From assembly GCA_041488375.1 (NCBI GenBank), contig JBGPPD010000002.1:3823-67822 (forward strand): a stretch of 64,000 bases of DNA, read 5' to 3'. Positions 12,922-31,097 of the stretch are shown here, in pieces (the stretch's first letter is position 1; each line of letters starts with the position of its first letter). The DNA is from Gammaproteobacteria bacterium (GTDB lineage Bacteria > Pseudomonadota > Gammaproteobacteria > Burkholderiales > SG8-39). Under the pieces are notes generated by a model. The model was given only the letters and a program-made list of their open reading frames with translations, had not been told where the DNA came from and made no database searches. The position numbers and the translations under genes are program-made.

Positions 12922-15741
12922 CTAGGCGACGAGCGCGCGCTCCAGCACGCGCGCCACGTGCAGGGCGCGCCGCTCGGTGCCGTCGGCGATCTGGTGGCGG
13001 CAGCTGGTGCCGTCGGCGACGATCAGCGTCTCGGCGCCGGCCTGGCGCACCGCGGGCAGCAGGGTCAGCTCGGCCATTTTCATCGATATCTCGTAGTGCT
13101 CGGCCTCGTAGCCGAAGCTGCCCGCCATGCCGCAGCAGCTCGATTCGACGCTCGACACCTTGAGGCCGGGTACCAGGGACAGCACGCGTTGCACCGCGCC
13201 CATCGCGCCGAACGCCTTCTGGTGGCAGTGGCCGTGCAGCAGCGCTTGCTGCTCGAGCGGCTTGAGCTTGAGCTGCAGCCGCCCGCCTTCCGCTTCCCGC
13301 GCGAGGAATTCCTCGAACAGAAACGCATTCGCCGCCAGCGCCTTGGTCTCCGGCAGCAGGACCGTGTACTCGTCGCGCAGCGTGTACAGGCAGGAAGGTT
13401 CGAGACCCAGGATCGGTACGCCGTTCGCGACCCACGGCTTCAGGGCGTCGATCAGGCGCTGCGCCTCGCGCTTGGCCTCTTCCACCAGGCCGGCCGAGAG
13501 GAAAGTCCGGCCGCAGCACAAGGGCCGCTGGCCGAAGGTGGGTTGCGCAACGTGCACCCGGTAGCCGGCTGCCTCCAGCACGCGCACCGCGGCGCGCGCG
13601 TTCTCCGGCTCGAAGTAACGGTTGAAGGTATCCACCAGCAGCACCACCTCGCGGCCGCCGCGCTTGGTCCACACCCGGTCGACGAAGTAGTTGGCCCGCC
13701 ATGCAGGCAGCGCGCGCCGCGTGGAGAACCCGAGCGCGGACCTTGACCAGCGCGAGACCAGGTTCGCGACCGGGGCCAGGCGCGCCGCCCAAGGCGCGTA
13801 GCGCGGCAGCCAGGCGATAGCGCGGTCGCGCAGCGAGAGGCCGTGGCGCGCCTTGTAGTGGGCGAGGAACTCGAGCTTCATGCGCGCCATGTCCACGCCG
13901 GTCGGGCACTCGCGCTTGCAGCCCTTGCAGGACACGCACAGGTCGAGGGCCTGCTGCACGTCCGCCTCGGCGTTCGCTCCCAACTGGCCCGACAGGGCGA
14001 GGCGCAGCGTGTTGGCGCGGCCGCGCGTGAGATGGGCCTCGTCGCGCGTGACGCGGTAGGACGGGCACATGGTGCCGGCGTCGAACTTTCGGCAGTGGCC
14101 GTTGTTGTTGCACATCTCCACGGCCTTGTCGACGCCGCCCCACTCCGACCAGTCGAGCACCGGGATCGGCGCTTTGGCCGCGTAACCCGGCGGAAAGCGG
14201 AACAGGCGCGCGTCGTCCATCTTCGATGGATTGACGATCTTGCCCGGGTTCATCAGGCCCTTGGGGTCGAGCCAGGACTTGATTTCGCCCAGGCAGGCGG
14301 TGAGCCGCGGGCCGAAGAACGGCGCGATCCACTCCGAGCGCACCAGTCCGTCGCCGTGCTCGCCCGAGTAGGCGCCCTTGTATTGCTTGACCATGGCGCA
14401 GGCTTCCTCGGCGATGGCGCGCATCTTGGCGGCGTCGCCGGCCCGCATGTCGAGGATCGGCCGCACGTGCAGCGTGCCGACAGAGGCATGCGCGTACCAG
14501 GTGCCGCGCGTGCCGTGCTTCGCGAACACCTGCGTCAGGCGGTCCGTGTATTCGGCGAGGTGCTCGAGCGGCACCGCGCAGTCCTCGATGAAGGACACCG
14601 GCTTGCCGTCGCCCTTGATCGACATCATGATGTTGAGGCCGGCCTTGCGCACTTCCCACAGGTCCCTCTGCAATTTCGCTTCGGTCACTTCGACCACGCT
14701 GCCCGGCAGGCCGAGGTCGGCCATCAGCTGCACCAGCTGCTTCAGCTTCGCGACTTGCGCCGCAGCATCATCGCCCGAGAACTCGACCAGCAGGATCGCG
14801 TCCGGCTCGCCGCGGATCACCGTGTCCACCGTGGCGCGAAATGCCGCGATGTCGCGCGCCAGGCCGATCATCGTGCGATCCACCAGCTCCACTGCCGAAG
14901 GTCCGAGCTTGACGATGTGCTGCGTGAGGTCCATCGCCGTGTGGAACTTGGGGAAGCGGCATACGCCGAGCACCCTGTGCGCGGGGAGCGGGCTCAACTT
15001 GAGGCGGATGCGCTCGAACCAGGCGAGCGTGCCTTCCGAGCCGACCAGCAGGTGGGCCGAGTTCTCGTACGGCGGGCCGAGGTGGTCCAGGTTGTAGCCG
15101 GCGACCCGGCGCAGCACCTTGGGAAAGCGCACTGCGATCTCTTCCTTCTCGCGCTCGTAGAGCGCACGCAGCTTCCTCGTCAGTTCCGAGTCGTCGGTCA
15201 TCGGGCCGAAACGCCGTGCGCGGCCGTCGCTGGTGACGGCGTCGATGGCGTGCACGTTGTGCACCATGTTGCCGTAGGCGATCGAGCGCGAGCCGCAGGA
15301 GTTGTTGCCCGCCATGCCCCCCAGCGTCGCCTGCGCGCTGGTGGAGACGTCCACGGGAAACCACAGGCCGTGCGGGCGCAGTTGCGCGTTCAGGGCGTCC
15401 AGCACCAGCCCGGGCTGCACCAGGGCGCTGCGTTGTCCGGCGTCGACTTCGAGCAGGCGGTCGAGGTGCTTGGAGCCGTCGATGACCAGTGCCGCGCCCA
15501 CCGTCTGTCCGCATTGCGAACTGCCGGCGCCGCGCGGGAGCACCGGCACGCCGGACTCGACGGCGATGGCGAGCGCCGTGCGCGCCGCTTCCTCGGTGCG
15601 CGGCAGCACCACGCCGAGCGGCATCACTTGATAGATCGAGGCATCGGTGGCGTAGCGGCCGCGGGAAGCGGCGTCGAACAGGATCTCCCCGTCGACTTCC
15701 TTGTGCAGCCGGTGCGCAAGCGGGGACGACGCTTCGCTCAT
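12922..15741 (-). CDS. FAD-linked oxidase fused to a 4Fe-4S / CCG-domain module (YdiJ / D-2-hydroxyacid dehydrogenase-like)
   Basis: 939 aa. N-terminal FAD-binding PCMH-type domain (PRGAGSS), ferredoxin motif CVSCKGCKRECP, C-terminal Cys-rich CCG repeats. The start overlaps the gntR stop by 4 nt. Confidence 0.8.
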   Translation of the reverse strand: MSEASSPLAHRLHKEVDGEILFDAASRGRYATDASIYQVMPLGVVLPRTEEAARTALAIAVESGVPVLPRGAGSSQCGQTVGAALVIDGSKHLDRLLEVDAGQRSALVQPGLVLDALNAQLRPHGLWFPVDVSTSAQATLGGMAGNNSCGSRSIAYGNMVHNVHAIDAVTSDGRARRFGPMTDDSELTRKLRALYEREKEEIAVRFPKVLRRVAGYNLDHLGPPYENSAHLLVGSEGTLAWFERIRLKLSPLPAHRVLGVCRFPKFHTAMDLTQHIVKLGPSAVELVDRTMIGLARDIAAFRATVDTVIRGEPDAILLVEFSGDDAAAQVAKLKQLVQLMADLGLPGSVVEVTEAKLQRDLWEVRKAGLNIMMSIKGDGKPVSFIEDCAVPLEHLAEYTDRLTQVFAKHGTRGTWYAHASVGTLHVRPILDMRAGDAAKMRAIAEEACAMVKQYKGAYSGEHGDGLVRSEWIAPFFGPRLTACLGEIKSWLDPKGLMNPGKIVNPSKMDDARLFRFPPGYAAKAPIPVLDWSEWGGVDKAVEMCNNNGHCRKFDAGTMCPSYRVTRDEAHLTRGRANTLRLALSGQLGANAEADVQQALDLCVSCKGCKRECPTGVDMARMKLEFLAHYKARHGLSLRDRAIAWLPRYAPWAARLAPVANLVSRWSRSALGFSTRRALPAWRANYFVDRVWTKRGGREVVLLVDTFNRYFEPENARAAVRVLEAAGYRVHVAQPTFGQRPLCCGRTFLSAGLVEEAKREAQRLIDALKPWVANGVPILGLEPSCLYTLRDEYTVLLPETKALAANAFLFEEFLAREAEGGRLQLKLKPLEQQALLHGHCHQKAFGAMGAVQRVLSLVPGLKVSSVESSCCGMAGSFGYEAEHYEISMKMAELTLLPAVRQAGAETLIVADGTSCRHQIADGTERRALHVARVLERALVA

Positions 15742-16427
15742 GCTGCCTCGCGCGCCGGCGCCGCCCGCAGATCGGCCAGCACGCTCGAGAGCTTGTGCGC
15801 CAGATGGTCCGCAAGCAGCGCCTTGATGCGGACCACGTCGCGCGCAGCGAGCGCCTCGAGGATCTCGCCGTGCTCACGCACCGCGGCGTCCCAACGCTCC
15901 TGCGACAGGTTCGCCATGTAGCGTGCGCGGCGCACGTTCGCGTTCAGTTGCCGGTAGGTGTTGTAGAGCACCGTGTTGCCGGAGTATTTCACGATCTTCA
16001 GGTGGATCGCCTGGTTGAACTTGAAGTAGCCGGCAAGGTCGCTGCGCGCGTGGTTGGCGAGCATCTCCTGGTGCAGCAAGCGGATCTCGTTGATCTGGCC
16101 GTCGCTCGCTTTGACGCAGGCGAATTCGCCGGCGAGCGCCTCGAGCGCGCCCATCACCGCCAGGGTCTCCGCCAGCCGGACGGCATCGATCTCGGAAACG
16201 ATCGCGCCGCGGTTCGGCAGCAACTCGACCAAGCCTTCGGTAGCGAGTACCTTGAAAGCCTCGCGCAGCGGGGTGCGTGACACGCCAATCTGCGCGGTAA
16301 GCAGTCGCTCGTTCAAGCGGACCCCGGGGGCGAGTCGCCCTTGGACAATCAGGTCGCGCAGCCTGTCCGCAGCTTCCTCGTGCAGGGGCCGACGGGTGAT
16401 GGAAGTGATGTCTTGCGAGAATGTCAT
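15738..16427 (-). CDS. GntR-family (FadR/FCD subfamily) transcriptional regulator
   Basis: ORF 15738..16457 trimmed to the ATG at 16427. Winged-HTH N-terminus (LNERLLTAQIGVSRTPLREAFKVL) followed by an all-helical C-terminal domain. Confidence 0.85.
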   Translation of the reverse strand: MTFSQDITSITRRPLHEEAADRLRDLIVQGRLAPGVRLNERLLTAQIGVSRTPLREAFKVLATEGLVELLPNRGAIVSEIDAVRLAETLAVMGALEALAGEFACVKASDGQINEIRLLHQEMLANHARSDLAGYFKFNQAIHLKIVKYSGNTVLYNTYRQLNANVRRARYMANLSQERWDAAVREHGEILEALAARDVVRIKALLADHLAHKLSSVLADLRAAPAREAA

Positions 16428-16487
16428 TTTGCATGCAGAATACAAAACTTCGTCCAAAATAGCAACTTAAGCTTCTATTGTGGTGAG

Positions 16488-16499
16488 TTTGTATACAAA
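16488..16499. promoter_or_regulatory. candidate GntR operator TTTGTATACAAA
   Basis: Perfect 12-bp palindrome with a GT...AC core, 14 nt upstream of the aminotransferase ATG, in an AT-rich divergent gap. A TACAAA half-site lies near 16441. Confidence 0.5.
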
Positions 16500-16513
16500 A
16501 TGAGGAGATTTGG

Positions 16514-17710
16514 ATGAAGAGGACCGCTGGCCGTCATTTCCTGCAGATTCCGGGACCGACCAACGTACCCGACCGGGTCCTGCGCGCGATCGACCTCCCG
16601 ACCATGGACCACCGCGGGCCGGATTTCGCCGAACTCGGCAAGGCGGTCCTCGACGGCATGAAGCGCGTCTTCAAGACCAAGGGCCAGGTGGTGATCTATC
16701 CCGCCTCCGGCACCGGCGCCTGGGAAGCCGCGCTCGTCAACACGCTCTCGCCCGGCGACCAGGTCCTGATGTACGAGACGGGGCACTTCGCGAGCCTGTG
16801 GCAGAAGATGGCCGCAAAGCTCGGGCTGCAGCCAGAGTTCCTCGCGGGCGACTGGCGGACCGGGGCGGACCCGGCTGCCGTCGAAAGGCGCCTGCGCGAG
16901 GACGCCGGCCATCGCCTCAAGGCAGTCTGCGTTGTGCACAACGAGACTTCGACTGGCGTCACTTCACGCATCGGCGAAGTGCGCAAGGCGATCGACGCGG
17001 CAAGACATCCCGCGCTGTTGATGGTGGACACCATCTCGTCGCTCGCGTCGATCGACTACCGGCACGACGAGTGGGGCGTGGACGTCACCGTCGGCGGCTC
17101 GCAGAAGGGCTTGATGCTGCCGCCGGGGCTGTCCTTCAATGCAATTTCCGACAAGGCGCTGGCCGCTGCCAGGTTGGCGAAGCTGCCGCGCGCCTACTGG
17201 GGATGGGAGGAAATGATCGCCAACGGCAAGGCGGGCTATTTCCCCTACACGCCCGCCACCAACCTGCTCTACGGCCTGCGCGAAGCGCTGAAGATGCTGC
17301 TGGACGAAGAGGGCCTCGACAACGTCTTCGCGAGACACCAGCGCCACGCGGAAGCCACGCGCCGCGCAGTGCGCGCCTGGGGGCTGGAAGTGCTGGCGAC
17401 GAATCCCGCCGAATACAGCGGGGCGCTCACCGCGGTTCTGCTGCCGGCGGGACACGACGCCGACCGGGTACGCAAGATCATCCTCGAGCATTTCGACATG
17501 TCGCTCGGCACGGGCCTCGGCAAGCTCGCGGGCAAGGTGTTCCGCATCGGCCACTTGGGCGACCTCAACGACCTGACGCTGATGGGCACGCTGGCGGGCG
17601 TCGAGATGGGCCTGCAGCTCGCGGGAGTGCCCGCCAAGCAAGCCGGCGTGCAGGCCGCCATGCAATACCTCGCCTCGGTCCACGCGGCCGAGAAGCGCGC
17701 GGCGGCATGA
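16514..17710 (+). CDS. class V aminotransferase (serine-glyoxylate / alanine-glyoxylate / serine-pyruvate type)
   Basis: 398 aa. The N-terminus (GRHFLQIPGPTNVPDRVLRA) and the SQKGLMLPPG PLP-lysine region are typical of this family. Confidence 0.85.
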   Translation: MKRTAGRHFLQIPGPTNVPDRVLRAIDLPTMDHRGPDFAELGKAVLDGMKRVFKTKGQVVIYPASGTGAWEAALVNTLSPGDQVLMYETGHFASLWQKMAAKLGLQPEFLAGDWRTGADPAAVERRLREDAGHRLKAVCVVHNETSTGVTSRIGEVRKAIDAARHPALLMVDTISSLASIDYRHDEWGVDVTVGGSQKGLMLPPGLSFNAISDKALAAARLAKLPRAYWGWEEMIANGKAGYFPYTPATNLLYGLREALKMLLDEEGLDNVFARHQRHAEATRRAVRAWGLEVLATNPAEYSGALTAVLLPAGHDADRVRKIILEHFDMSLGTGLGKLAGKVFRIGHLGDLNDLTLMGTLAGVEMGLQLAGVPAKQAGVQAAMQYLASVHAAEKRAAA

Positions 17711-18486
17711 GCGAGCCGGTCTACGTCGAGCGCGACGGCGACCTCGCCACCGTCGTCCTCAACCGGCCGGAGCGCATGAATGCGCTCGACAAGGCGATGT
17801 GGATGCGCCTGGGCGCCGCCATGCGCGAGCTCGGCGCGGACGAGCACCTGCGCTGCATCGTGTTGCGCGGCGCGGGCGGCAAGGCGTTTGCCGCGGGCGC
17901 CGACATCAGCGAGTTCGCCAACGAGCGCGCCAACGCCGCGCAGGCAAGACGCTACGGCGAGGACGTCGCCGGCTCGATGCGCGCGCTGGCGGCGTGCCGC
18001 CATCCCACCGTGGCGCTGATCGAAGGCGCTTGCGTGGGCGGAGGGCTGCTCGTCGCCTCGCAATGCGATCTCAGGATCTGCAACGAGTCGGCGCGCTTCG
18101 GCGTGCCGGTGAAGAACCTCGGCCTCACCGAAGCCTACGACGAGCTGCAGGGCATGCTGCGCGTGCTCGGGGCCGCGGCGAGCCTCGAGATCCTGCTCGA
18201 GGGGCGCATTTGGGGCGCTCGCGAAGCCTACGAGAAGGGGCTCGTCAGCCGTGTGGTCCCGGATGCCGAGGTGGTCAAGGAAGCCTACGCCGCTGCGCGG
18301 CGCGTCGCGGACGGCGCGCCGCTGGTGGCGCGCTGGCACAAGAAATTCATCCGCCGGCTGGCCGATCCCCGCCCACTCAGCACGGAGGAAACCGCCGAGA
18401 GCTACGCCTGTTTCGACACTGAGGACTTCCGCATCGGCTATCGGGCGTTCCTGGACAAGAAGAAGCCGCAGTTCAGCGGGCGCTAA
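17707..18486 (+). CDS. enoyl-CoA hydratase/isomerase (crotonase) family protein
   Basis: Tail of ORF 16510..18486. The ATG at 17707 overlaps the upstream stop (ATGA). Motifs LNRPERMNAL and GAGGKAFAAGADI. Confidence 0.85.
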   Translation: MSEPVYVERDGDLATVVLNRPERMNALDKAMWMRLGAAMRELGADEHLRCIVLRGAGGKAFAAGADISEFANERANAAQARRYGEDVAGSMRALAACRHPTVALIEGACVGGGLLVASQCDLRICNESARFGVPVKNLGLTEAYDELQGMLRVLGAAASLEILLEGRIWGAREAYEKGLVSRVVPDAEVVKEAYAAARRVADGAPLVARWHKKFIRRLADPRPLSTEETAESYACFDTEDFRIGYRAFLDKKKPQFSGR

Positions 18487-18509
18487 GGCGCGCTGACTCG
18501 GCCAGCAGC

Positions 18510-19727
18510 CTAGATCGCGCCCTCGGCGCGCAGCGCCGCGATCTGCGCGGGGCTCCTGCCGAGGCGCTCGCGCAGGATCTGCTCGGTGTGCTCGCCGAGC
18601 GTCGGCGGCGCGAGCTTGTATTCCAGCGGCGTGCCCGAAAAGCGCATCGGGCTCGCCACCGTCGGCAGCTTGCCGGCCACCGGGTGGTCCAATTCGACGC
18701 GCACGCCGCGCGCGCGCACCTGCGGCTCCTCGAATACCTGCGCCAGGTCGTTGATCGGCCCGTTGGGCACGCCAGCGGCTTCCAGCCGCGCCAGCCACTC
18801 GTGCGTGGAGCGGGTCGCGAAGATGTCCTGCAGCAGCCGCGTCAGTTCAGCGCGGTTCTCCACCCGCTTGCCGTTGGTGGCGAAACGCGCATCGCCGGCC
18901 AGTTCCGGGCAGCCGGCCGCGTCGCAGAACTTGCGGTAGAGATTGTCGTTGCCGCAGGCGATGATGACCTCGCCGTCGGCGGTGCGAAACGGCTGGTAGG
19001 GCACGATGTTCGGGTGCAGGTTGCCGATGCGCGCCGGCGGCTTGCCGGTCGCGAAGTAGTTGGTGTTCTGGTAGGCCAGCAGCGCAATCTGCGAATCCAG
19101 CAGCGCGAGGTCGAGATGCTGTCCCTTGCCGGATTCCGCGCGATGCGCGAGCGCCGCGCAGATGGCGATCGAGGCGTACATGCCGGTGATGATGTCGGCA
19201 ACTGGAACTCCCGCGCGCATCGGCTCGCCGCCAGGCTCGCCGGAGACGCTCATCATGCCGCCCATGCCCTGGATCATGAAGTCGTAGCCCGGTCGCTCGC
19301 GGTACGGCCCGGTCTGGCCGAACCCGGTGACCGAGCAGTAGATGAGCTGCGGGTTGAGGCCCTGCAGGTCGTCGTAGCCCAGCCCGTAGCGCGCTAAGTC
19401 GCCGACCTTGTAGTTCTCGATCAGGACGTCGCTGGATCGGGCGAGTTCCCTGATGAGCGCCTGGCCCGCCGGACTCGAGATGTTGACCGTGACCGACTTC
19501 TTGCCGCGGTTGGCGGAGGTGAAATAGGCGGAGTCCTTCGTGTCCCGGCCTGCGCGGTCCTTCACCCAAGGCGGCCCAAAGGCGCGCGAATCGTCGCCGA
19601 TCTTCGGCCGTTCGATCTTGATCACTTCCGCGCCCAGGTCGGCGAGGTTCTGCCCGGCCCAGGGCCCGGCCAGTACGCGCGACAGATCGAGCACCCGGAT
19701 ATGCGACAACGGTCCTGCCATGTTCAT
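18510..19727 (-). CDS. family III CoA-transferase (CaiB/BaiF/Frc type)
   Basis: 405 aa. N-terminus GPLSHIRVLDLSRVLAGPWAGQNLADLGAEVIKIE is the family hallmark. Confidence 0.88.
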   Translation of the reverse strand: MNMAGPLSHIRVLDLSRVLAGPWAGQNLADLGAEVIKIERPKIGDDSRAFGPPWVKDRAGRDTKDSAYFTSANRGKKSVTVNISSPAGQALIRELARSSDVLIENYKVGDLARYGLGYDDLQGLNPQLIYCSVTGFGQTGPYRERPGYDFMIQGMGGMMSVSGEPGGEPMRAGVPVADIITGMYASIAICAALAHRAESGKGQHLDLALLDSQIALLAYQNTNYFATGKPPARIGNLHPNIVPYQPFRTADGEVIIACGNDNLYRKFCDAAGCPELAGDARFATNGKRVENRAELTRLLQDIFATRSTHEWLARLEAAGVPNGPINDLAQVFEEPQVRARGVRVELDHPVAGKLPTVASPMRFSGTPLEYKLAPPTLGEHTEQILRERLGRSPAQIAALRAEGAI

Positions 19728-19737
19728 GTCCCCCTTG

Positions 19738-20532
19738 TCACCACAAGTGTGCCAGCATGCGCAGCCCTAGCGCGAGCAGCGTCAGCGCGAACACCATGCG
19801 CAAACGCTTCACCGGCAGCCGGTGCGCCAGGCGCGCGCCGAGCGGCGCCATCGGCATGCTGGCGGCCACGACCAGCAGCAGAGCCGGCAGGTACACATAA
19901 CCCAGGCTCCATGGCGGCAGGTCGGACACGCGCATGCCTTGCACTACATAGCCGACCGTGCCCGCCACCGCGATCGGAAAACCGTTCGCCGCGGCCGTGC
20001 CGATGGCGCGTTTCAACGGCAGATTGCACCACGCAAGGAACGGGATCGAAAGGAACGCGCCACCCGCCGCCAGCACGCTCGAAATGGCGCCGATGCCGGC
20101 GCCGGCTGCGAACAGCCCGCCACTGCCCGGCAGCTGGCGCCCGGGCTTCGGCTTGATCTCCACGAACATTTGCGCAGCCGCGTAAAACATGAATCCGGTG
20201 AAGAACACCGCCAGCGGCCGCGTCGGGATGAAGCTGGCGAGCAGCGCGGCCGCCAGCGAGCCCGCGAGGATGCCGGGCGCCATCGCGCGCGCCACCGGCC
20301 AGTCCACGCCGCCGTGGCGGTGATGCGCGCGCACGCTGGAAAGCGACGTGAACGTGATCGTCGCCAGCGAAGTGGCAAGCGCCAGATGCATCATGTGCTC
20401 GCCCGGAAAGCCATTGGCGGTGAATACGAAAACCAGCATCGGCACCATCACCATGCCCCCGCCGATGCCGAGCAGTCCCGCGAGGAACCCCACGGTCACG
20501 CCGATGACGAGGTAAGCCCACCACCAGTCCAC
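19738..20532 (-). CDS. TSUP (TauE/SafE) family anion exporter
   Basis: 264 aa polytopic protein with GTG start and repeated GIGGG-type motifs. Confidence 0.8.
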   Translation of the reverse strand: MDWWWAYLVIGVTVGFLAGLLGIGGGMVMVPMLVFVFTANGFPGEHMMHLALATSLATITFTSLSSVRAHHRHGGVDWPVARAMAPGILAGSLAAALLASFIPTRPLAVFFTGFMFYAAAQMFVEIKPKPGRQLPGSGGLFAAGAGIGAISSVLAAGGAFLSIPFLAWCNLPLKRAIGTAAANGFPIAVAGTVGYVVQGMRVSDLPPWSLGYVYLPALLLVVAASMPMAPLGARLAHRLPVKRLRMVFALTLLALGLRMLAHLW

Positions 20533-21314
20533 TAGCGCTCGCCCAGCAGGTGCGCGACAAGCTCGGCGAAGCCTGCGCCGGCTTGCGCCTGCGTGACGTA
20601 CTTCGGCGGCGCCGGCAGCCGCCCGGCGAAGCGCGCGACGTTCGCGACGCCGACCGAGTTCGCGAAATAGGCGAACATCGGCGCGTCGTTGGGCGAGTCG
20701 CCCGCGTAGGCGTACTGCGCATTCGCCGAATCGAGGTCGGTCGCGAACTTCTCGGCGAACAGGATCCTGGTCATGGCCAGCTTGTCGTAACCGCCAAACC
20801 AGCCGTTGACGTGGATCGAACTGATCTTGGCGGACAGGCCCGCTTCACGCATCAGCGCGGCGATGCGCTCCGCCGCCTCCAACGGCAGCGCCGGCACGTC
20901 CTCGCAATAGTCGATCGCGAGGTCGGCTTCGCGGTAGGCCTGGTCGGACGCCAGCGCACAACCCGGGGCCGCGGCGAGGATGCGCTGCGCGATCGCCGCG
21001 AGGCGCGCGCGCTTGTCGGCGCGCGTTGCCTCCGGGTCATGGAAGCGCTTGTGCAGCTTGCCCGATTCGTGGCGGAAATAGAACGCCCCGTTCTCGCCCA
21101 CGACGGCGTCCACCGGCCACATGCGCGCAATGTGGTCGCACCAGCCGGCGGGGCGTCCGGTCACCGCGATCACCATGCGTCCTGCCTGCTTGAGCCGTTC
21201 GAGCGCTGCGTAGGCCTGCGCGGTCAGCCGGCCTTCGGTGGTCAGCGTGTCGTCGATGTCGAACAGCAGGCCGCGCAGTCGTTCTGCGCCGCGCAACTCG
21301 GCTAGCGGCTTCAT
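20532..21314 (-). CDS. HAD-superfamily (IIB-like) phosphatase
   Basis: 260 aa. Motif I is FDIDDTLT and the distal motif is GDSPND. Confidence 0.75.
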   Translation of the reverse strand: MKPLAELRGAERLRGLLFDIDDTLTTEGRLTAQAYAALERLKQAGRMVIAVTGRPAGWCDHIARMWPVDAVVGENGAFYFRHESGKLHKRFHDPEATRADKRARLAAIAQRILAAAPGCALASDQAYREADLAIDYCEDVPALPLEAAERIAALMREAGLSAKISSIHVNGWFGGYDKLAMTRILFAEKFATDLDSANAQYAYAGDSPNDAPMFAYFANSVGVANVARFAGRLPAPPKYVTQAQAGAGFAELVAHLLGER

Positions 21315-21327
21315 GGAGGGCGCGATT

Positions 21328-22983
21328 CTAGCGCGCCAGGGGCAGCTGCACGCGTACCACCACGCCGTCGCCGGAGCCCAGGTTCGCCGCCTCGATGGCG
21401 CCGCCGTGGAACTCTGCGATCAGCCGTGCCACGTACAGGCCCAGGCCCAGGTGCGGACCGCCGCCCGCGCGCTCGCCCCGCACCGAGACCATCGAGTCGA
21501 ACAGCCGCCCACGCATTTCCGCCGGCAGCAGCGGGCCCTTGTTCTGCACCGACAGCACAGCCGCGCCATCGACTTGCTCCAGGACAATCCGCACCGGCTC
21601 GCCGGACCTGGAGAACTCGACCGCGTTCTCCACCAGCTTGTCGAGCAGTTGCGCCGCGAGATCCGCCGCGCCGGCGACCGGCAGCGCGCTGCCGGGCAGC
21701 TCGAGGTCGAACGGCACCCGCGCATAGGCCAGCCGGTAACCCTCGACACAGCCCCGCACCAGCCCTTCGAGGTCGAAACGCTCGCGCTCGGCGGTGCGCA
21801 GGCTTTGTTCCAGGCGGCTCGCTTCGCTCATTCTTTGCAGAATGGTATTCAGCCGCGCCAGTCCCTGTTCTGCACGCTCGATGTAGGTCCGCGATTCGGC
21901 GGCATCCGTGGCCAGTTTCAGGTTCTCCAGCGAAGAACGCACCACTGCAATCGGCGTGCGCAGTTCGTGTGACAGCCGCCCCGCCATGCTTTCCAGATAG
22001 GCGTGGTGCTGCGCGAGCTTGGCCAGCATCGCGGAAAAGCTGCGTGACAGGTCGCCGATCTCGTCGCCGGCCTCCGAGCCCGCGGACAGGCGCGCGATGC
22101 GGCCGCGCGCATCGATCGCGCTTTCCGCCTCGTCGCGCAGGCGCCGGATGCGATGCGACAGCCAGGAGGCATACGCGATCAGCATCGCCGCGGCGCCGAG
22201 GAAAACCGTCAGCGTGAGGGCGAGCAGCCGTTCCAGCGCTTCGCTGCGCAACGTGGCGATCGGATTGGTGGTCTCCTCCACCACCACCGCGCCCGCGACC
22301 TCGTTGTGGTTCCAGACCGGGTGCGCCGCGGACACGACCACGGCTCGGCCGTCGGCGGTGCGCCGCGTGCGGCTGCCCGGCGTTCCCTGCAGCGCGGCCG
22401 CGATATCGCGTCCGGTGGCCAGCACGTCATCGGGCACCGCCTCGGCAAAATCTTCGCGCGGGCGCCGAATCAGCCAACCGGCAAAAGCGTGCCATGTCTC
22501 GCGCATCAGCCCGCCTTCCTCGGCGGGCGGCTCCGGGCGGCGCAGGCTGCCGGCCAAGGCCAGCACCTGGTAGCGGCGGTTCACCACCCAGATGCGCGAT
22601 TCGGTGCGCTGCACGCCACGCAGGATCGCCGCGATGTCCTCCTGCGCGGCGCGGGCGGCGAGCGCGGCTTCACGCGCCAGGGGAACCGGCGCTGCCGCCG
22701 GATCGAGGAGGCGTCCTTCGCTCTCCGCGATGCGCTGCAGCTCGAGCTCCGCCTCGCGGCGCATGGCGTCGTCCCGCTCCGGCAAGGCCACCAGCAGCTG
22801 CGGGCGATCGTGCAGCGCCGTGGCAATGGCGCGCGCCGTGCCGACGAGCGCTCGCTGCTGGCCCTCCAGCAGCACTTGCTCCAGTTCATTCACGTAGCGC
22901 ACCCCCACCCACGGCAGCGCGAGCAGGACCAGCGCCACCAGCGCCAACCTGGCGCGCAAGCCGAGCCGGAAGCGCCGCTTCAC
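21328..22983 (-). CDS. sensor histidine kinase of the proteobacterial dedicated sortase system
   Basis: Tail of ORF 21328..23829. GTG at 22983 gives a GTGA overlap with the RR stop. TM segment LALVALVLLALPW, large periplasmic region, second TM, H-box LSHELRTPIAV, ATPase domain with the N, G1 and G2 boxes. Confidence 0.8.
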   Translation of the reverse strand: MKRRFRLGLRARLALVALVLLALPWVGVRYVNELEQVLLEGQQRALVGTARAIATALHDRPQLLVALPERDDAMRREAELELQRIAESEGRLLDPAAAPVPLAREAALAARAAQEDIAAILRGVQRTESRIWVVNRRYQVLALAGSLRRPEPPAEEGGLMRETWHAFAGWLIRRPREDFAEAVPDDVLATGRDIAAALQGTPGSRTRRTADGRAVVVSAAHPVWNHNEVAGAVVVEETTNPIATLRSEALERLLALTLTVFLGAAAMLIAYASWLSHRIRRLRDEAESAIDARGRIARLSAGSEAGDEIGDLSRSFSAMLAKLAQHHAYLESMAGRLSHELRTPIAVVRSSLENLKLATDAAESRTYIERAEQGLARLNTILQRMSEASRLEQSLRTAERERFDLEGLVRGCVEGYRLAYARVPFDLELPGSALPVAGAADLAAQLLDKLVENAVEFSRSGEPVRIVLEQVDGAAVLSVQNKGPLLPAEMRGRLFDSMVSVRGERAGGGPHLGLGLYVARLIAEFHGGAIEAANLGSGDGVVVRVQLPLAR

Positions 22984-23669
22984 TCCTTCCAACGGTAGCC
23001 CATGCCGTAGGCCGTCTCGATCTGGTCGAACGCGGGGTCCACTCCCTGGAACTTGCGCCGCACGCGCTTGACGTGCGAGGTCACGGTGCCGTCGTCCACG
23101 ACCAGGTTGGCCTCGCGCATCAGCTGCTCGCGGTTCTTCACATGACCCGGGTGTCTGGCCAGGGCATGCACCATCCAGAACTCGGTGAGGGTGAGCGGCA
23201 CCGGCTTGCCGTGCCAGGCGACGGCGAAGCGCTTCAGATCCAGGCTCAAGGCGCCGCGCTCGATGGTCTCCTCGAGCGCCTGCGGTTCGCGCGAAAGTTC
23301 CGCGCGACGGAACAGCGCGCTGATGCGTGCCAGCAGGTGCGGCAGGCTCACATCCTTGGTCAGGTAGTCGTCCGCGCCGAGGCGCAGGCCCGACACCACG
23401 TCGAAGTCGCTGTCGCGCGCGGTGAGGAAAATGATCGGCAGTGTCGCGGACAGCGCGCGCAACTCGCGGCACAGCGTGAAGCCCGCATCCGCATCGCTGC
23501 CCAGGCCGATGTCGATGATCGCCAGATCCGGCAGGCGCGTGCGCGCCGCGGACAGCGCCTCGGCGCGCCCCGCGTAGGCGCCAACCTCGAATCCGTGCTT
23601 GCGCAGCGCTTCGCTGTAGTTGGCGCGGATGGCCGGATCGTCCTCGACGATGGCGATGCGGCGGGACAT
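22980..23669 (-). CDS. OmpR-family DNA-binding response regulator (dedicated sortase system RR)
   Basis: 229 aa. Receiver domain (IAIVEDD...DLAIIDIGL) plus winged-helix output ending GMGYRW. Confidence 0.85.
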   Translation of the reverse strand: MSRRIAIVEDDPAIRANYSEALRKHGFEVGAYAGRAEALSAARTRLPDLAIIDIGLGSDADAGFTLCRELRALSATLPIIFLTARDSDFDVVSGLRLGADDYLTKDVSLPHLLARISALFRRAELSREPQALEETIERGALSLDLKRFAVAWHGKPVPLTLTEFWMVHALARHPGHVKNREQLMREANLVVDDGTVTSHVKRVRRKFQGVDPAFDQIETAYGMGYRWKE

Positions 23670-23827
23670 GGCGGGCGACTATAGCCCAACGCCGCCGCCG
23701 CCGCGGCGCCTGCCATGGGATTGCCAGAATTCTTCGCCGCCTTTGCTCCGTCCGGACGCGGCGCGGCCTCCGCCGGCTCGTGCAATGCATGCTCAGCAGC
23801 AGCGTCAACTCCGAGGACACCGCCGCC

Positions 23828-25933
23828 ATGCCGAGCCGGACACCTTCCGCCAGCGCCCGCGTCGTCGCCTACGACCTGCTTGCGTTCATCGCGCTTGCGG
23901 TGGCCATCGCCTTGGCCGCCGCCGCGGTGCTGACCGCCACGGTCCTCCTGCTCGCCGGCCGCGCCGAAGCAGCCCCGGGCACCGAGCAGGAGCCGGGCGC
24001 CTTGCTGCTTCGCACTCTGGACGGCAGGCGGGCGGCGAGCGCGCCGCTGCTGTCCACGGAGGTCACCTTCCGCGTCTCCGGCATGCTGGCCAGGGCGCGA
24101 GTCGTGCAGACCTTCCACAACGCCACCGCCGACTGGGTCGAGGGTGTCTATGTGTTCCCGCTGCCGGAAAACGCCGCCGTGGATCGTCTGCAGTTGCGCG
24201 TCGGCGAGCGCCTGATCGAAGGGGAAATCCGCGAGCGCGACGCCGCGCGCCGCGCCTACCAGCAGGCGCGCGCCGCCGGCCAGCGCACCGCCCTGATGGA
24301 CCAGGAGCGTCCCAACCTCTTCACCACCCGCGTCGCCAACATCGGGCCGCAGCAATTGGTCGCGGTCGAACTGGAGTACCAGCAGACCCTGCGTTACGAC
24401 AACGGGCGCTATTCGCTGCGCTTCCCGATGGTCGTGGCGCCGCGCTACATCGCCGGCAACCTCAAGGTATCGGCGACGGAGCAACTCGGCTGGAGCCCGA
24501 ACACGGACCAGGTGGCGGACGCCGCACGCATCACGCCGCCCGTGCTACGGCCCGAGGCGGGACCAGCCAACCCGGTATCGATCCGCGTCGAGCTGGATGC
24601 CGGCGTGCCAATCGCGCAGCTGGACAGCCCCTACCATCCCGTGGACGTGCGCACCATTTCGGCAAGCCGGCGCCTGGTCGAACTGGCTGACGGTGCAGTG
24701 CCGGCCAACAAGGACTTCGAATTGACCTGGGCGCCGCACGCCGGGGCCGCGCCGCAGCTGGCGTGGTTCACTGAGCAAAAGGCGGGTCGCCACTACGGCT
24801 TGCTGATGGTGCTGCCGCCCGCCGCTGCGCCGGGCGCACGGCTCCCCCGTGAAGTCGTGTTCGTGCTGGATACCTCGGGCTCGATGGCAGGCGCGTCGAT
24901 CCGCCAGGCCAGGGACGCGCTCGAGTTGGCGCTGTTGCGGCTCGCCCCGGGAGATCGCTTCAATGTCATCGAATTCAATTCGACGGCGCAGTCGCTGTTT
25001 GCCGGACCGCAGCCAGTGAACCCGCGCAACGTGCGGCGCGCGATCGATTGGGTGCGCTCGCTGCAGGCGCGCGGCGGCACCGAGATGGCCGCTGCGCTGC
25101 AGCTGGCGCTCGACGGCTCCGACGGCGGCGTTCGCGTACGCCAAGTGGTGTTCCTGACCGACGGGGCGGTGGGCAACGAAGAGGCGCTATGCAATCTGAT
25201 CCGCGAGCGTCTCGGCGACACACGCCTGTTCACCATCGGCATCGGCTCGGCGCCAAACAGCCATTTCATGACCAAGGCGGCGCAACTTGGCCGAGGGACG
25301 TTTACCTACATCGGCCGCATCGAGGAGGTGCAGGCGAAGATGGGCGAGCTGTTCGCCAAGCTCGAATCGCCGGTCCTCAAGGGCCTCGAAGTGCATTGGC
25401 CGCAGGGCGTGCACGCACAAGCCTGGCCCACCCGCATCCCGGATCTGTATGCCGGCGAGCCCGTGGTGCTCGTTGTGGCGCTCGAGCGACTCGAGGGCGA
25501 GGTGCGCGTCAGCGGCTTGCGCGACAACCGCACCTGGGAAGCGCTTGTGCCGCTTGCGCTCAACGGCAACGCCGCCGGCATGGGCTCGCTCTGGGCGCGC
25601 GGCAAAGTGGAATCGCTCATCGACTCGATCCGCGAAGGCGCAAGCGAGGAGGAAGTCCGTACCCAGGTCCTCGAGTTGGCCACCGCGCATCGCCTGGTCA
25701 CCAAGTACACGAGCTTTGTCGCGGTGGACAAGTCGCCAGCACTGCCGTCGGACGCGCAGCTCAAGCTCGCCGCCGTGCCGACCAATCTTCCCGAAGGCTG
25801 GGAGGCCGACAAGGTGTTCGGCGAGCTGCCGCAGGGTGCGACCGACAGCCGTTGGGCGATGCTCACCGGGTTGCTGATGCTGCTGCCGGCGCTGGCGATG
25901 CTCTTCGCGCGGCGCCGCCGGAGCCTGGCGTGA
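23828..25933 (+). CDS. VIT + von Willebrand factor A domain protein with a C-terminal sortase sorting signal (sortase target)
   Basis: ORF 23780..25933, likely ATG at 23828. VIT-like region (VYVFPLPENAAV...IGERLIEGEI). vWA MIDAS motif DTSGSM. C-terminus is LPQGATDSRW, then a hydrophobic stretch, then ARRRRSLA. Confidence 0.85.
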   Translation: MPSRTPSASARVVAYDLLAFIALAVAIALAAAAVLTATVLLLAGRAEAAPGTEQEPGALLLRTLDGRRAASAPLLSTEVTFRVSGMLARARVVQTFHNATADWVEGVYVFPLPENAAVDRLQLRVGERLIEGEIRERDAARRAYQQARAAGQRTALMDQERPNLFTTRVANIGPQQLVAVELEYQQTLRYDNGRYSLRFPMVVAPRYIAGNLKVSATEQLGWSPNTDQVADAARITPPVLRPEAGPANPVSIRVELDAGVPIAQLDSPYHPVDVRTISASRRLVELADGAVPANKDFELTWAPHAGAAPQLAWFTEQKAGRHYGLLMVLPPAAAPGARLPREVVFVLDTSGSMAGASIRQARDALELALLRLAPGDRFNVIEFNSTAQSLFAGPQPVNPRNVRRAIDWVRSLQARGGTEMAAALQLALDGSDGGVRVRQVVFLTDGAVGNEEALCNLIRERLGDTRLFTIGIGSAPNSHFMTKAAQLGRGTFTYIGRIEEVQAKMGELFAKLESPVLKGLEVHWPQGVHAQAWPTRIPDLYAGEPVVLVVALERLEGEVRVSGLRDNRTWEALVPLALNGNAAGMGSLWARGKVESLIDSIREGASEEEVRTQVLELATAHRLVTKYTSFVAVDKSPALPSDAQLKLAAVPTNLPEGWEADKVFGELPQGATDSRWAMLTGLLMLLPALAMLFARRRRSLA

Positions 25934-26598
25934 AACCCGAACTCTCGTGGGGCGCGGAATGCGCGTGGCCAAGGCGCGCTTCGGCGCGGAATCTTCGCAG
26001 CGCCTTGTCTTGGAGGTCCCTGGCGCTGGGCCTGTTCCTCATTGGGGCCCTGCAGTTCGGCTACGGCGCGTGGATCCAGGCCAAGGCCTGGCTGGCGCAG
26101 GAACTCATTGCGCGCGCCTGGGCGCGTACGCTCAAGGGCGAGACCGAGGTGAAGCCCTGGCCCTGGGCCGACACTTGGCCGGTGGCGCGATTGTCTGCGC
26201 CCGGCCTGGGAGTCGAGCGCTACGTGCTTGCGGGCGCCAACGGCAGTGCGATCGCATTCGGCCCCGGCCATTTGTCCGGCACGCCGGTGCCCGGAGAGCC
26301 CGGCAACAGCGTGATCGGCGGGCACCGCGACACGCACCTCGCGTTCCTGCGCAAAGTGAAGCCGGGCGACGAACTGGTCATCGAACGCGCGGACGGCGCG
26401 CACGTCGCCTACCGGGTGCGCGAGGCGCTGGTGCTCGACAAACGCGACGTCTGGGTGGCGAAGCAGGAGGGACCGAACCGCCTCACGCTGGTCACCTGCT
26501 TTCCTTTCGACGCGCTGCGCGCCGGCGGGCCGCAGCGCTACGTGGTGTTCGCTTTCGAATCCAAGAACCGCGGCGGCGAGCGCGGGACGCGGGGCTAG
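25930..26598 (+). CDS. class GN (proteobacterial) sortase
   Basis: Tail of ORF 25048..26598. The GTG at 25930 overlaps the target stop (GTGA). N-terminal TM segment, catalytic His context IGGHRDTH, catalytic Cys in TLVTC, downstream Arg (PQRYVV). Confidence 0.8.
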   Translation: MKPELSWGAECAWPRRASARNLRSALSWRSLALGLFLIGALQFGYGAWIQAKAWLAQELIARAWARTLKGETEVKPWPWADTWPVARLSAPGLGVERYVLAGANGSAIAFGPGHLSGTPVPGEPGNSVIGGHRDTHLAFLRKVKPGDELVIERADGAHVAYRVREALVLDKRDVWVAKQEGPNRLTLVTCFPFDALRAGGPQRYVVFAFESKNRGGERGTRG

Positions 26599-26638: not shown

Positions 26639-28318
26639 TCAAAAGGTGGCGTAGCTCTTCACCAGGAACTGGACCTTCTTGATGCTCGGGTCCGCATCGA
26701 CCGGGAACGCAATGTCCAGATGCAGCACTTTGGCGGTTGCCGAGCGGTCGTTGAGAAAGCGCAATCCGAAGCCGAAATCGCGCAGCCAGCCGGGGTTGGT
26801 GAGGTTCTCATACGGGCCACCCCAGGCTCGCCCGACGTCGAAGAACACGGCCGCGCCGACGCGAATCAGCTGGAAGGGGTACCAGTCCGTGTAGACCCTC
26901 TCCTCGAGGGTGAACAGAGCGCGCTGGTTGCCGCTCTGATAGCGCATCGGATAGCCGCGCATCCCGCTGTCGCCACCGAGGAGCAGTTGGTCCGAGGCAA
27001 GTGGATTCCTTACCAGGTCAACGCCCGCCGCAGCGTAAAAAAGTCCGCGCGGCCCTTGCTGCAGGAAATAGCGCGTGGAGGCGCCATAGAATTGCCGCTC
27101 GCCACGCCCGTCGCCGTATTGTCCGGAGAGTCTGACCCCGGTCTGCAAGTCGCTGCTGCTGCCCGTGCGAAAGCCCTTGCTGATTTCGCCGGAATACAGC
27201 CACAGGTCCCGCGTCGATCCAAGTCCGGAAGAGGTTCGACCCAGTTGCACCCGCGAGTAGAGGCCCATGGAAACGAATTCAGGGCGGCCGATCTTGTCCC
27301 GGTTGGCCATCTTGACATAGCCGTCCTCGATGACTTCGTAGCGCACAAACGGGTATGCCAGCGTTTGATCGGCGGGCACTTGCGCCGGCGCGGGCAGGGC
27401 CGGGTCGATCTGGTACGCGTCTTCCTGATAGCCGACACCGACGGAATAGCGCTGCACCCATCCGCCCACCAGGCCATCCGACCAGCCGCCGTAGACTTCG
27501 CCCGACTGCTGCTGGTGACGATACTGCGCGACGATGGCGCTATTGGTGTAGATCGAATCGATCTGCTCGAACTTTCCAATGGAGACGCCAAGTGCCCATC
27601 GCGTGTCGAGCGCATAGAAAGGCCGCGCCAGCGAAAACGAGTGCGCGTAGCCGTCGCTGTTGGTGGCGGTCCGGTAGTCGAATGTCGTCCAGTTGCCGAA
27701 GAGCTGGTTGTGGGCGATCTCGAACTCGTTTCCCGAGCGGTCTACCGAGGAGCTGCGCGATACGCCCACGGCGACGCCGGTGCCGAACAGGTTCTGTTCC
27801 TTCACCGACAGTCCGGTCGAATTGCTGCCGCCGCCGCGGCTGAAGCTGCCGCCCGGTTCCAGCGTCCAGGTGTCGCGCGTGCGCACTTCGATGTCGACAA
27901 CGCCGTCGCGAACCGCCGCCGGCCGGATGCTCACGTCATACAGGTAGCGGGTGTTGCGCAGCAGGCGCTCGGACTCTTCGATGAGGCGCAGCGAGACGCG
28001 CTCGCCGCTGCGAAACAACAGCGAACGTTGGATCACGCTCGGGCGGGTACGGATATGCAGCCAGTTCGCCAGCCGGTACAGCGAACTGTTTTCCTTCGGG
28101 TTTTCCAGGTCGAAGATATTCTGCGGATTGATGCGCACCTCGCCGATGACGGCACCGGCCGCCTCGAGCTCGGCAAAGGACGGAACGACCGTGTCGCGCA
28201 CGGCGTCGTCCGCGATCGCGGGCAAGCAGTGGCACAGGGCGGCGATGCAGGCCGACAGCACAAACCGCCTGGACGTCTGCACCATTTCCCGGTGACGACC
28301 CGCGCGCGCCGGCTTCAT
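26639..28318 (-). CDS. Omp85-superfamily outer-membrane protein (POTRA + surface antigen/D15 barrel)
   Basis: 559 aa. The likely true start is the ATG at 28285 (MVQTSRRFVLSACIAALCHCLPAIA signal peptide). POTRA-like N-terminus, barrel rich in G/Y/F alternation, terminal ...SYATF. Confidence 0.75.
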   Translation of the reverse strand: MKPARAGRHREMVQTSRRFVLSACIAALCHCLPAIADDAVRDTVVPSFAELEAAGAVIGEVRINPQNIFDLENPKENSSLYRLANWLHIRTRPSVIQRSLLFRSGERVSLRLIEESERLLRNTRYLYDVSIRPAAVRDGVVDIEVRTRDTWTLEPGGSFSRGGGSNSTGLSVKEQNLFGTGVAVGVSRSSSVDRSGNEFEIAHNQLFGNWTTFDYRTATNSDGYAHSFSLARPFYALDTRWALGVSIGKFEQIDSIYTNSAIVAQYRHQQQSGEVYGGWSDGLVGGWVQRYSVGVGYQEDAYQIDPALPAPAQVPADQTLAYPFVRYEVIEDGYVKMANRDKIGRPEFVSMGLYSRVQLGRTSSGLGSTRDLWLYSGEISKGFRTGSSSDLQTGVRLSGQYGDGRGERQFYGASTRYFLQQGPRGLFYAAAGVDLVRNPLASDQLLLGGDSGMRGYPMRYQSGNQRALFTLEERVYTDWYPFQLIRVGAAVFFDVGRAWGGPYENLTNPGWLRDFGFGLRFLNDRSATAKVLHLDIAFPVDADPSIKKVQFLVKSYATF

Positions 28319-28369: not shown

Positions 28370-28791
28370 TTACTTGCGGCGTAGCTTGCGGATCGCCGCG
28401 AGCTGCGCGGCGAGCATCGCCAGCTCCCCTTCCACCGCGGCGATCTCCTGCTTGTCCTGCGCCTTGGCGCGGGCCTCTTCGGCCTTCTTGATGGCCTCGT
28501 TCGCCTTCGCCTCATCGAGGTCGTGGCCGCGGATCGCCGTGTCGGCAAGCACCGTGATCACCTTGGGCTGTACTTCGAGGATGCCGCCGGCGACAAAAAT
28601 CAATTCTTCCGCGCCGCCGCCCGCCGGGGTGATGCGCACCGTCCCCGGCCTGATGCGCGTGATCAGCGGCGCATGGCGCGGATAGATGCCGAGCTCTCCC
28701 GCTTCGCCGGGAAGAACGACGAACTCCGCCTCGCCCGAGTAGATCGAGGCTTCAGCGCTGACGACATCGACGTGGATGGTGGCGGTAGCCA

Positions 28792-28792
<1 letters not shown>
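28370..28792 (-). CDS. atpC: F0F1 ATP synthase subunit epsilon
   Basis: 140-aa tail of ORF 28370..30040 ([14 protein letters not shown]...). Follows atpD with a 1-nt overlap. Confidence 0.92.

Positions 28793-31097
<2,305 letters not shown>

Follow-up and report, generated by a model that had tools for sequence, protein, structure and literature searches.

A glycine-containing LPQGAT sorting signal in a proteobacterial class GN sortase cassette and its covariation with a residue near the catalytic histidine of the sortase

Can a sortase substrate do without the Thr residue that marks the cleavage site of sorting signals? This question is raised by a stretch of 64,000 nucleotides from contig JBGPPD010000002.1 of a Burkholderiales bacterium (lineage SG8-39; assembly GCA_041488375.1), referred to in the following as the window, to which all coordinates apply. 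It contains a gene for a sortase target protein featuring an N-terminal signal or anchor, a VIT domain, a VWA domain and a C-terminal sorting signal, which is directly followed by a sortase gene. To our knowledge, no feature of sortase signals from class A to F is more constant than the Thr at the scissile position. In the present target, the motif reads LPQGAT and position 4 is occupied by Gly. As outlined below, comparison of the sequences suggests that LPQGAT is most probably a normal and selectively maintained signal, i.e., a natural specificity variant of the known class GN sortase system that co-evolved with its enzyme.

The target gene and the parts of its C-terminal tail are located as follows:

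23828 to 25933, forward strand: sortase target gene encoding 701 amino acids, matching TIGR03788 and the Pfam domains VIT and VWA; an identical public protein exists (P0001)
25826 to 25843, forward strand: sorting motif L-P-Q-G-A-T, encoded by the codons CTG CCG CAG GGT GCG ACC
25844 to 25855, forward strand: linker DSRW between motif and membrane helix, kept as DSR[FWY] in the close clade
25856 to 25906, forward strand: hydrophobic membrane-spanning segment of 17 amino acids, AMLTGLLMLLPALAMLF, lying in the part of the tail to which TIGR01167 aligns
25907 to 25930, forward strand: basic C-terminal tail ARRRRSLA, followed by the TGA stop codon (25931-25933)

The open reading frame of the target extends upstream to a GTG at 23780, and public gene calls use the ATG at 23828. 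The encoded protein scores 779.6 bits with TIGR03788 ("marine proteobacterial sortase target protein"; cut-off 551.65), covering profile positions 1-629 of 629, and contains the Pfam domains VIT (PF08487, 1e-31) and VWA (PF13768/PF00092), the latter with a metal ion-dependent adhesion site (MIDAS) motif of the DxSxS type (DTSGS from 24869). Translation of 25778-25933 yields KVFGE-LPQGAT-DSRW-AMLTGLLMLLPALAMLF-ARRRRSLA and the stop codon, and thereby confirms the reading given in a preliminary description of this region, with Gly (GGT, 25835-25837) at position 4 and Thr (ACC, 25841-25843) at position 6. Of the tripartite sorting signal, helix and basic tail are present, and position 4 holds Gly where Thr is expected. 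The generic LPXTG anchor model TIGR01167 recognizes the tail at 17.4 bits (cut-off 15.9) over profile positions 6-33, which comprise helix and basic tail and leave out the motif, whereas Thr-containing relatives reach about 30 bits over profile positions 1-32. Given the TIGR03788 score and the class GN sortase gene directly following, we regard this tail as a genuine sorting-signal context and not as a chance match. Readings of the tail as GlyGly-CTERM, i.e., as a rhombosortase substrate, or as PEP-CTERM were also considered and rejected, as no such model matched it beyond noise at E <= 10 and the sortase is strictly adjacent.

Is the Gly then peculiar to this genome? Motif positions in the tails of related proteins were assigned by a scoring scheme, and among the 120 closest homologues (61-100% identity) position 4 is Gly in 114, Thr in three and Ser in three. 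The 68 species-level genome loci with a readable tail are divided into 33 with Gly and 35 with Thr, the former including Pseudothauera lacus, Thauera, Denitromonas ohlonensis, Cognatazoarcus halotolerans and Ca. Desulfobacillus denitrificans. Family-wide, i.e., among 142 representatives at 50% identity, 104 carry Thr, 32 Gly, four Ser, one Cys and one Ala. Consequently, Thr at position 4 is not universal in the TIGR03788 family, as about a quarter of the representatives (~23%) have Gly. The family motif LP[QK]T[AS]T given in the preliminary description fits the Thr4 majority, and its view of Gly4 as an anomaly, held unless orthologues should commonly carry this residue, has to be given up. Gly4 is conserved in homologues from 46% to 100% identity, and the motif as a whole is strongly conserved and located at a fixed distance from the helix. 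In the 33 Gly loci, the residue is encoded by GGC (28), GGT (3) or GGG (2), and this use of several codons indicates selection on the amino acid. LPQGAT would thus appear typical of a large, mostly betaproteobacterial sub-lineage of the class GN system (Burkholderiales, Rhodocyclales).

These counts bear directly on two explanations that would deprive the motif of any meaning. A sequencing or assembly error turning a Thr codon into GGT finds its only argument in the departure from LPXTG, and its probability is negligible: a change from ACN to GGT takes two base substitutions, as had been pointed out before for ACT or ACC, the identical tail is present in nine proteins of >=90% identity from separate NCBI, JGI and Logan assemblies, and Gly is also found in 114/120 close homologues. 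The "single-base difference" offered as one option in the preliminary description is rejected on these grounds. Decay of the signal to a non-functional substrate in a dead cassette could account for the absence of the canonical Thr and for the TIGR01167 alignment being confined to helix and tail. However, Gly is maintained over the identity range mentioned above with synonymous codon variation, the sortase keeps its catalytic His, Cys and Arg and exceeds the family cut-off, the cassette is intact in cultured genera, and the enzyme covaries with the signal (see below). We therefore consider decay very improbable, and the earlier suggestion of an "inactive substrate" is likewise abandoned in view of the frequency of Gly in homologues, the several codons and the nine identical tails. 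For the lineage of the window, LPQGAT is an ordinary signal and neither a defect, an error nor the mark of a pseudogene. Also the statement that the usual acyl-donor Thr is missing needs to be qualified. It holds relative to classical LPXTG signals, but the carbonyl of any residue can form the thioacyl intermediate with the sortase, so that Gly does not by itself prevent catalysis.

The sortase and its residue of interest are located at:

25930 to 26598, forward strand: class GN sortase gene encoding 222 amino acids, matching TIGR03784 and Pfam Sortase; the exact product is found in public gene calls
26317 to 26319, forward strand: Gly130 of the sortase (GGC), two residues before the catalytic His in NSVI-G-G-HRDTH, covarying with the substrate motif

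The sortase reaches 212.9 bits with TIGR03784 (cut-off 158.25) and 5.5e-28 with Pfam Sortase. In a profile alignment, its catalytic residues His132 (26323-26325, within GGHRDTH), Cys190 (26497-26499, within LTLVTC, a TLxTC-type motif) and Arg203 (26536-26538, within QRYVV) align with H120, C184 and R197 of Staphylococcus aureus SrtA, and the triad is thus intact. The GTG start codon of the sortase gene overlaps the stop codon of the target gene (25930-25933, GTGA within GCGTGA), an arrangement suggestive of translational coupling.

Mapped onto a neighbour-joining tree built from the 69 sortases of the genome loci, the signal has changed just twice, namely from Thr to Gly at the base of a 34-taxon clade containing the window and, by a single reversion, back to LPQT[GA]T. 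One sortase column follows both changes, and this is the residue two positions before the catalytic His (H-2), represented by G130 in the window. H-2 is Gly in 34/34 loci with a Gly signal, whereas the 30 outgroup loci with a Thr signal feature Ser (22), Thr (7) or Val (1), and the five members of the nested revertant clade Ser (3), Thr (1) or Gly (1). A relative with the signal LPQSAT has Ala at H-2. Among the revertants, L006-L008 and L012 read LPQTGT, i.e., a canonical LPXTG, with ACC GGC where Gly-signal relatives have GGC GCC; regaining Thr hence involved changes in two adjacent codons. L012 still carries Gly at H-2 and may represent an intermediate.

Subsequently, 80 diverse sortase loci of metagenomic origin, with the target tails encoded upstream of them, were added to the sample, and one extraction artefact (L155) was removed. 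H-2 could not be read where contigs end 65 codons into the sortase gene (P0105, with LPRTAT nested among LPRGAT, and P0118, with LPQSAT), and the contig of P0145 (LPAGAT) ends at the target gene. In the raw counts, Gly4 signals are accompanied by Gly at H-2 in 46 loci and by Ser or Thr in five, and Thr4 signals by Gly in four (five with the artefact included) and in 82 by Ala, Ser, Thr or a different residue. With the H-2 column masked from the tree, nine phylogenetically independent contrasting pairs were obtained, of which seven were concordant, two tied and none discordant. H-2 was the single best covarying column of the sortase (net seven of nine contrasts, compared to four for the runner-up). 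Distant out-of-sample representatives with Gly4 fell into two groups: YPSGAT, FPSGAT, YPAGAT and LPQGST all pair with Gly at H-2, and LPQGGT, YPQGGT and LPSGGT pair with Ala. For signals of the form x-P-x-G-[A/S]-T, Gly at H-2 is found in 49/49 paired sortases, compared to 4/95 for other motifs, and the 11 independent contrasts agree without exception (sign test, p ~0.001), this class having been narrowed post hoc, when the exceptions were already known. A conservative count from a collapsed tree gives at least five independent events.

Apart from this post hoc definition, several further points weigh against the reading as a co-evolved specificity variant. The covariation is not absolute, as seen from the four Thr-signal loci with Gly at H-2. 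Signals of the form x-P-x-G-G-T pair with Ala in all three cases (L166, L169 and L170, with the targets P0137, P0190 and P0150), which may constitute a third signal/enzyme class in the family, and the Pro-less motifs LGQGAT, FGQGAT, TGQGAT and MASGAT (L101, L136, L162, L163 and L147) are accompanied by Thr or Ser. Moreover, both partners shrink, from Thr to Gly in the signal and from Ser, Thr or Ala to Gly in the sortase, so that no simple size compensation is apparent. Since the trees were built by neighbour joining from about 180 columns, the number of independent events may be overestimated. Finally, a literature search found no experimental study of class GN sortases or of an LPQGAT-type motif. 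Nevertheless, the option of a "functional variant specificity" named in the preliminary description gains support from the frequency of Gly and is strengthened by a pocket residue of the sortase that covaries with the motif.

What could the H-2 residue do? In the two best matches to the window sortase among solved structures, 8T28 (a class C sortase) and 2LN7, it is Thr or Ser. The second-best match, 2LN7, which we take to be the class D sortase SrtC of Bacillus anthracis, has Ser at H-2 and shares the HRDT motif with the window sortase. The H-2 column aligns with Ala118 of S. aureus SrtA. In the latter enzyme, residues 104, 118 and 182 jointly determine the specificity for motif position 4, and the laboratory-evolved variant eSrtA(4S-9), selected for LPXSG, carries A118T (PMC9126251). 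The covariation between H-2 and motif accordingly places position 4 of the signal against the active-site pocket, as in classical sortases. The position-4 specificity of eSrtA(4S-9), which accepts LPXSG, LPXAG and LPXCG (PMC9126251), was changed partly via the residue homologous to G130 of the enzyme described here. In contrast to this engineered class A sortase, the window enzyme is natural, and the acceptance of Gly predicted from its sequence is not among the reported engineered specificities.

With position 4 next to the pocket, the candidate for the scissile bond is Gly4-Ala5 (G|A), which would be the counterpart of the class A (T|G) and class D (T|A) cleavage sites. We favour this assignment with modest confidence, as it is suggested by the small residue at P1', the homology to class D SrtC and the covariation of the position-4 pocket. 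The main competitor is a shift in register, in which the near-invariant Thr6 would serve as acyl donor across class GN (LPxxxT|) and position 4 as a mere upstream recognition residue. Thr at position 6 is found in 118/120 close homologues, 68/68 genome loci and 130/142 representatives, with Ser in a further two, none and five, respectively. It is thus more conserved (92-100%) than Thr4 (73% of the representatives), which would also agree with Thr6 as the acyl donor, and wherever a Gly4 signal has a clear register, Thr or Ser is retained at position 6. In addition, signals lacking Thr6 (LPxTD[AGNQ]) all keep Thr4, so that at least one Thr is always present, although the six signals of this kind are too few to inform on a dependence between Thr4 and Thr6. 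The existence of these rare LPxTD signals without any Thr6 is, on the other hand, itself difficult to reconcile with Thr6 as a general acyl donor. In 93% of the sequences, position 5 is occupied by Ala or Gly, in agreement with the residues that known sortases prefer at P1' (T|G, T|A), whereas position 7 varies between D, P, S, N, G and A. Furthermore, the sortase residue that covaries with the motif corresponds by homology to A118 of SrtA, one of the determinants of specificity at position 4, and the closest characterized class, D, cuts LPNTA after Thr4 (PMC3297441). Taken together, a Thr6 donor seems unlikely to us, though it deserves serious consideration.

Class D is in fact the best-scoring characterized class for the window sortase (79 bits), which remains below the class D cut-offs with 74.8 bits vs. 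165 for NF033746 and 79.1 vs. 140 for NF058671. The similarity extends to the signals, since LPNTA of B. anthracis SrtC and the motif in the name of NF058671 ("LPxTATN-specific") likewise follow the pattern LPxTA(T). SrtC cuts LPNTA at the Thr-Ala bond with meso-diaminopimelate (m-Dpm) as nucleophile (PMC3297441), an acceptor that is present in proteobacteria too. The system described here differs from class D in its Gram-negative host, its single dedicated target and the Gly at position 4.

Based on these comparisons, the following course of events can be proposed for G|A cleavage. The VIT/VWA target would be exported and then retained in the inner membrane through the helix and the basic tail at its C-terminus, where the adjacent, putatively membrane-anchored sortase with its triad His132/Cys190/Arg203 could process it. 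In the x-P-x-G-[A/S]-T lineages, the sortase appears to have swapped Ser, Thr or Ala at H-2 for Gly (G130 here), and its Cys would attack the signal, most likely at the Gly4-Ala5 bond. The resulting acyl-enzyme could then be resolved by an amine, plausibly that of peptidoglycan m-Dpm. More generally, class GN sortases with Gly at H-2 might be natural transpeptidases that cleave behind Gly (LPxG|A) and not behind the otherwise near-universal Thr, and that arose several times by coupled changes in signal and enzyme, a tentative proposition to which we assign not quite an even chance.

Alternatively, the tail could act as a membrane anchor only, with the sortase working elsewhere, e.g., in cross-linking another partner, and the difference in the motif being catalytically meaningless. 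In line with this, the literature search revealed no class GN sortase with a demonstrated substrate, and deletion of the sortase operon in Shewanella had no ampicillin phenotype (bioRxiv 10.1101/2023.05.05.539549). However, target and sortase genes are strictly adjacent across the family and appear translationally coupled in the window, the motif is strongly conserved at its fixed distance from the helix, and covariation of a residue close to the active site with the motif is hard to explain without direct recognition. A pure anchor function is therefore quite improbable, and processing of the LPQGAT signal by the adjacent sortase remains the preferred interpretation.

Upstream of the target gene, a divergently oriented two-component system completes the locus:

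22980 to 23669, reverse strand: dedicated sortase-system response regulator (RR), TIGR03787, 377.4 bits (cut-off 335.7), divergent from the target gene
21328 to 22977, reverse strand: sortase-system histidine kinase (HK), about 549 amino acids, start approximate, best match TIGR03785

The locus is the known four-gene dedicated sortase cassette of proteobacteria (TIGR03784, TIGR03788, TIGR03785/TIGR03787), which is represented in Shewanella oneidensis by SO2194-SO2196 with PghK/PghR. Both have the same gene order, in which HK and RR genes diverge from a single VIT/VWA target gene that encodes a tripartite C-terminal signal and is immediately followed by the sortase gene, and all members in the window except for the kinase exceed the curated cut-offs. 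The sortase gene is located directly downstream of the target gene in essentially all related loci with enough sequence, and the same HK-RR arrangement occurs in L082, L083 and L170-L174. In contrast to the class GN majority, the window features LPQGAT instead of xPxTAT and Gly instead of Ser, Thr or Ala at H-2. The kinase, with 553.5 bits, stays below the TIGR03785 cut-off of 612.2; it is about 150 residues shorter than this profile of 703 positions and covers positions 259-703, the N-terminal 258 being unmatched. Its periplasmic sensor region may, as far as the profile match tells, be shortened relative to the marine type. The Shewanella operon also differs by the gene for the OmpA-family protein PdsO, which in the window is missing from the interval between regulator and target (23670-23827), this interval being the part that was searched for it. 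In S. oneidensis, PghK/PghR acts as a sensor of peptidoglycan damage, upon which the sortase operon is induced more than 17-fold; the authors of that study describe the role of Gram-negative sortases as still unknown (bioRxiv 10.1101/2023.05.05.539549). By analogy, the cassette of the window would probably be induced by its own two-component system upon cell-wall damage.

An Omp85/BamA-like gene (26639 to 28318, reverse strand, 559 amino acids) converges on the sortase gene and was considered as a further cassette member. It shows a weak match to TIGR03303 and no Pfam match, and the flanks of 80 related genome loci yielded no homologue; hence, it is probably not part of the sortase cassette. 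The regions further outside (28370-30222, reverse strand, and 12922-20722) harbour housekeeping genes in an ordinary chromosomal context, with the epsilon and beta subunits of ATP synthase in one flank and a CaiB-type CoA-transferase, a BhcA-like aminotransferase, a YdiJ-like FAD/Fe-S dehydrogenase and a HAD-IIB hydrolase in the other.

Other members of the target family feature unusual tails of a different kind. In two proteins (P0128 and P0255) and six genome loci (L043, L055, L059, L066, L070 and L075), about 230 residues follow an internal LPxTAT motif and the membrane helix, so that the sorting signal of these extended members is not C-terminal. The extension comprises a further hydrophobic segment as well as a conserved domain with the terminal pattern LLLSS.A.PG[ML]N.P.A.L...GC, and a sortase gene is located downstream in 5/6 of the extended-tail genome loci, L075 having no sortase match. 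A further group of Casimicrobiaceae type (L041, L046-L048, L051-L054, L064 and L077) has lost Leu-Pro of the motif and kept QTAT (GAQTAT, APQTAT or SPQTAT), and the related loci L060, L065, L074 and L079, also of Casimicrobiaceae type, carry a long cytoplasmic extension ending in Cys (RRVC).

The curated NCBIfam models already include proteins with the Gly form, and the new part is the Gly form of the signal as such together with its covariation with the sortase, on which the literature search found no publication. For the family, this means that about a quarter of the clusters and nearly all relatives of the source organism carry a conserved Thr-to-Gly form of the signal, and that this form is coupled to a substitution close to the active site. 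On the level of annotation, motif-based LPXTG detectors will miss or under-score such tails. The two residues concerned, position 4 of the signal and H-2 of the sortase, provide a testable hypothesis. If LPxG|A cleavage proves true, these enzymes would represent ready-made orthogonal sortases and possible ligation enzymes, and both the Thr-independent part of the sortase mechanism and the role of sortases in Gram-negative envelopes would become testable.

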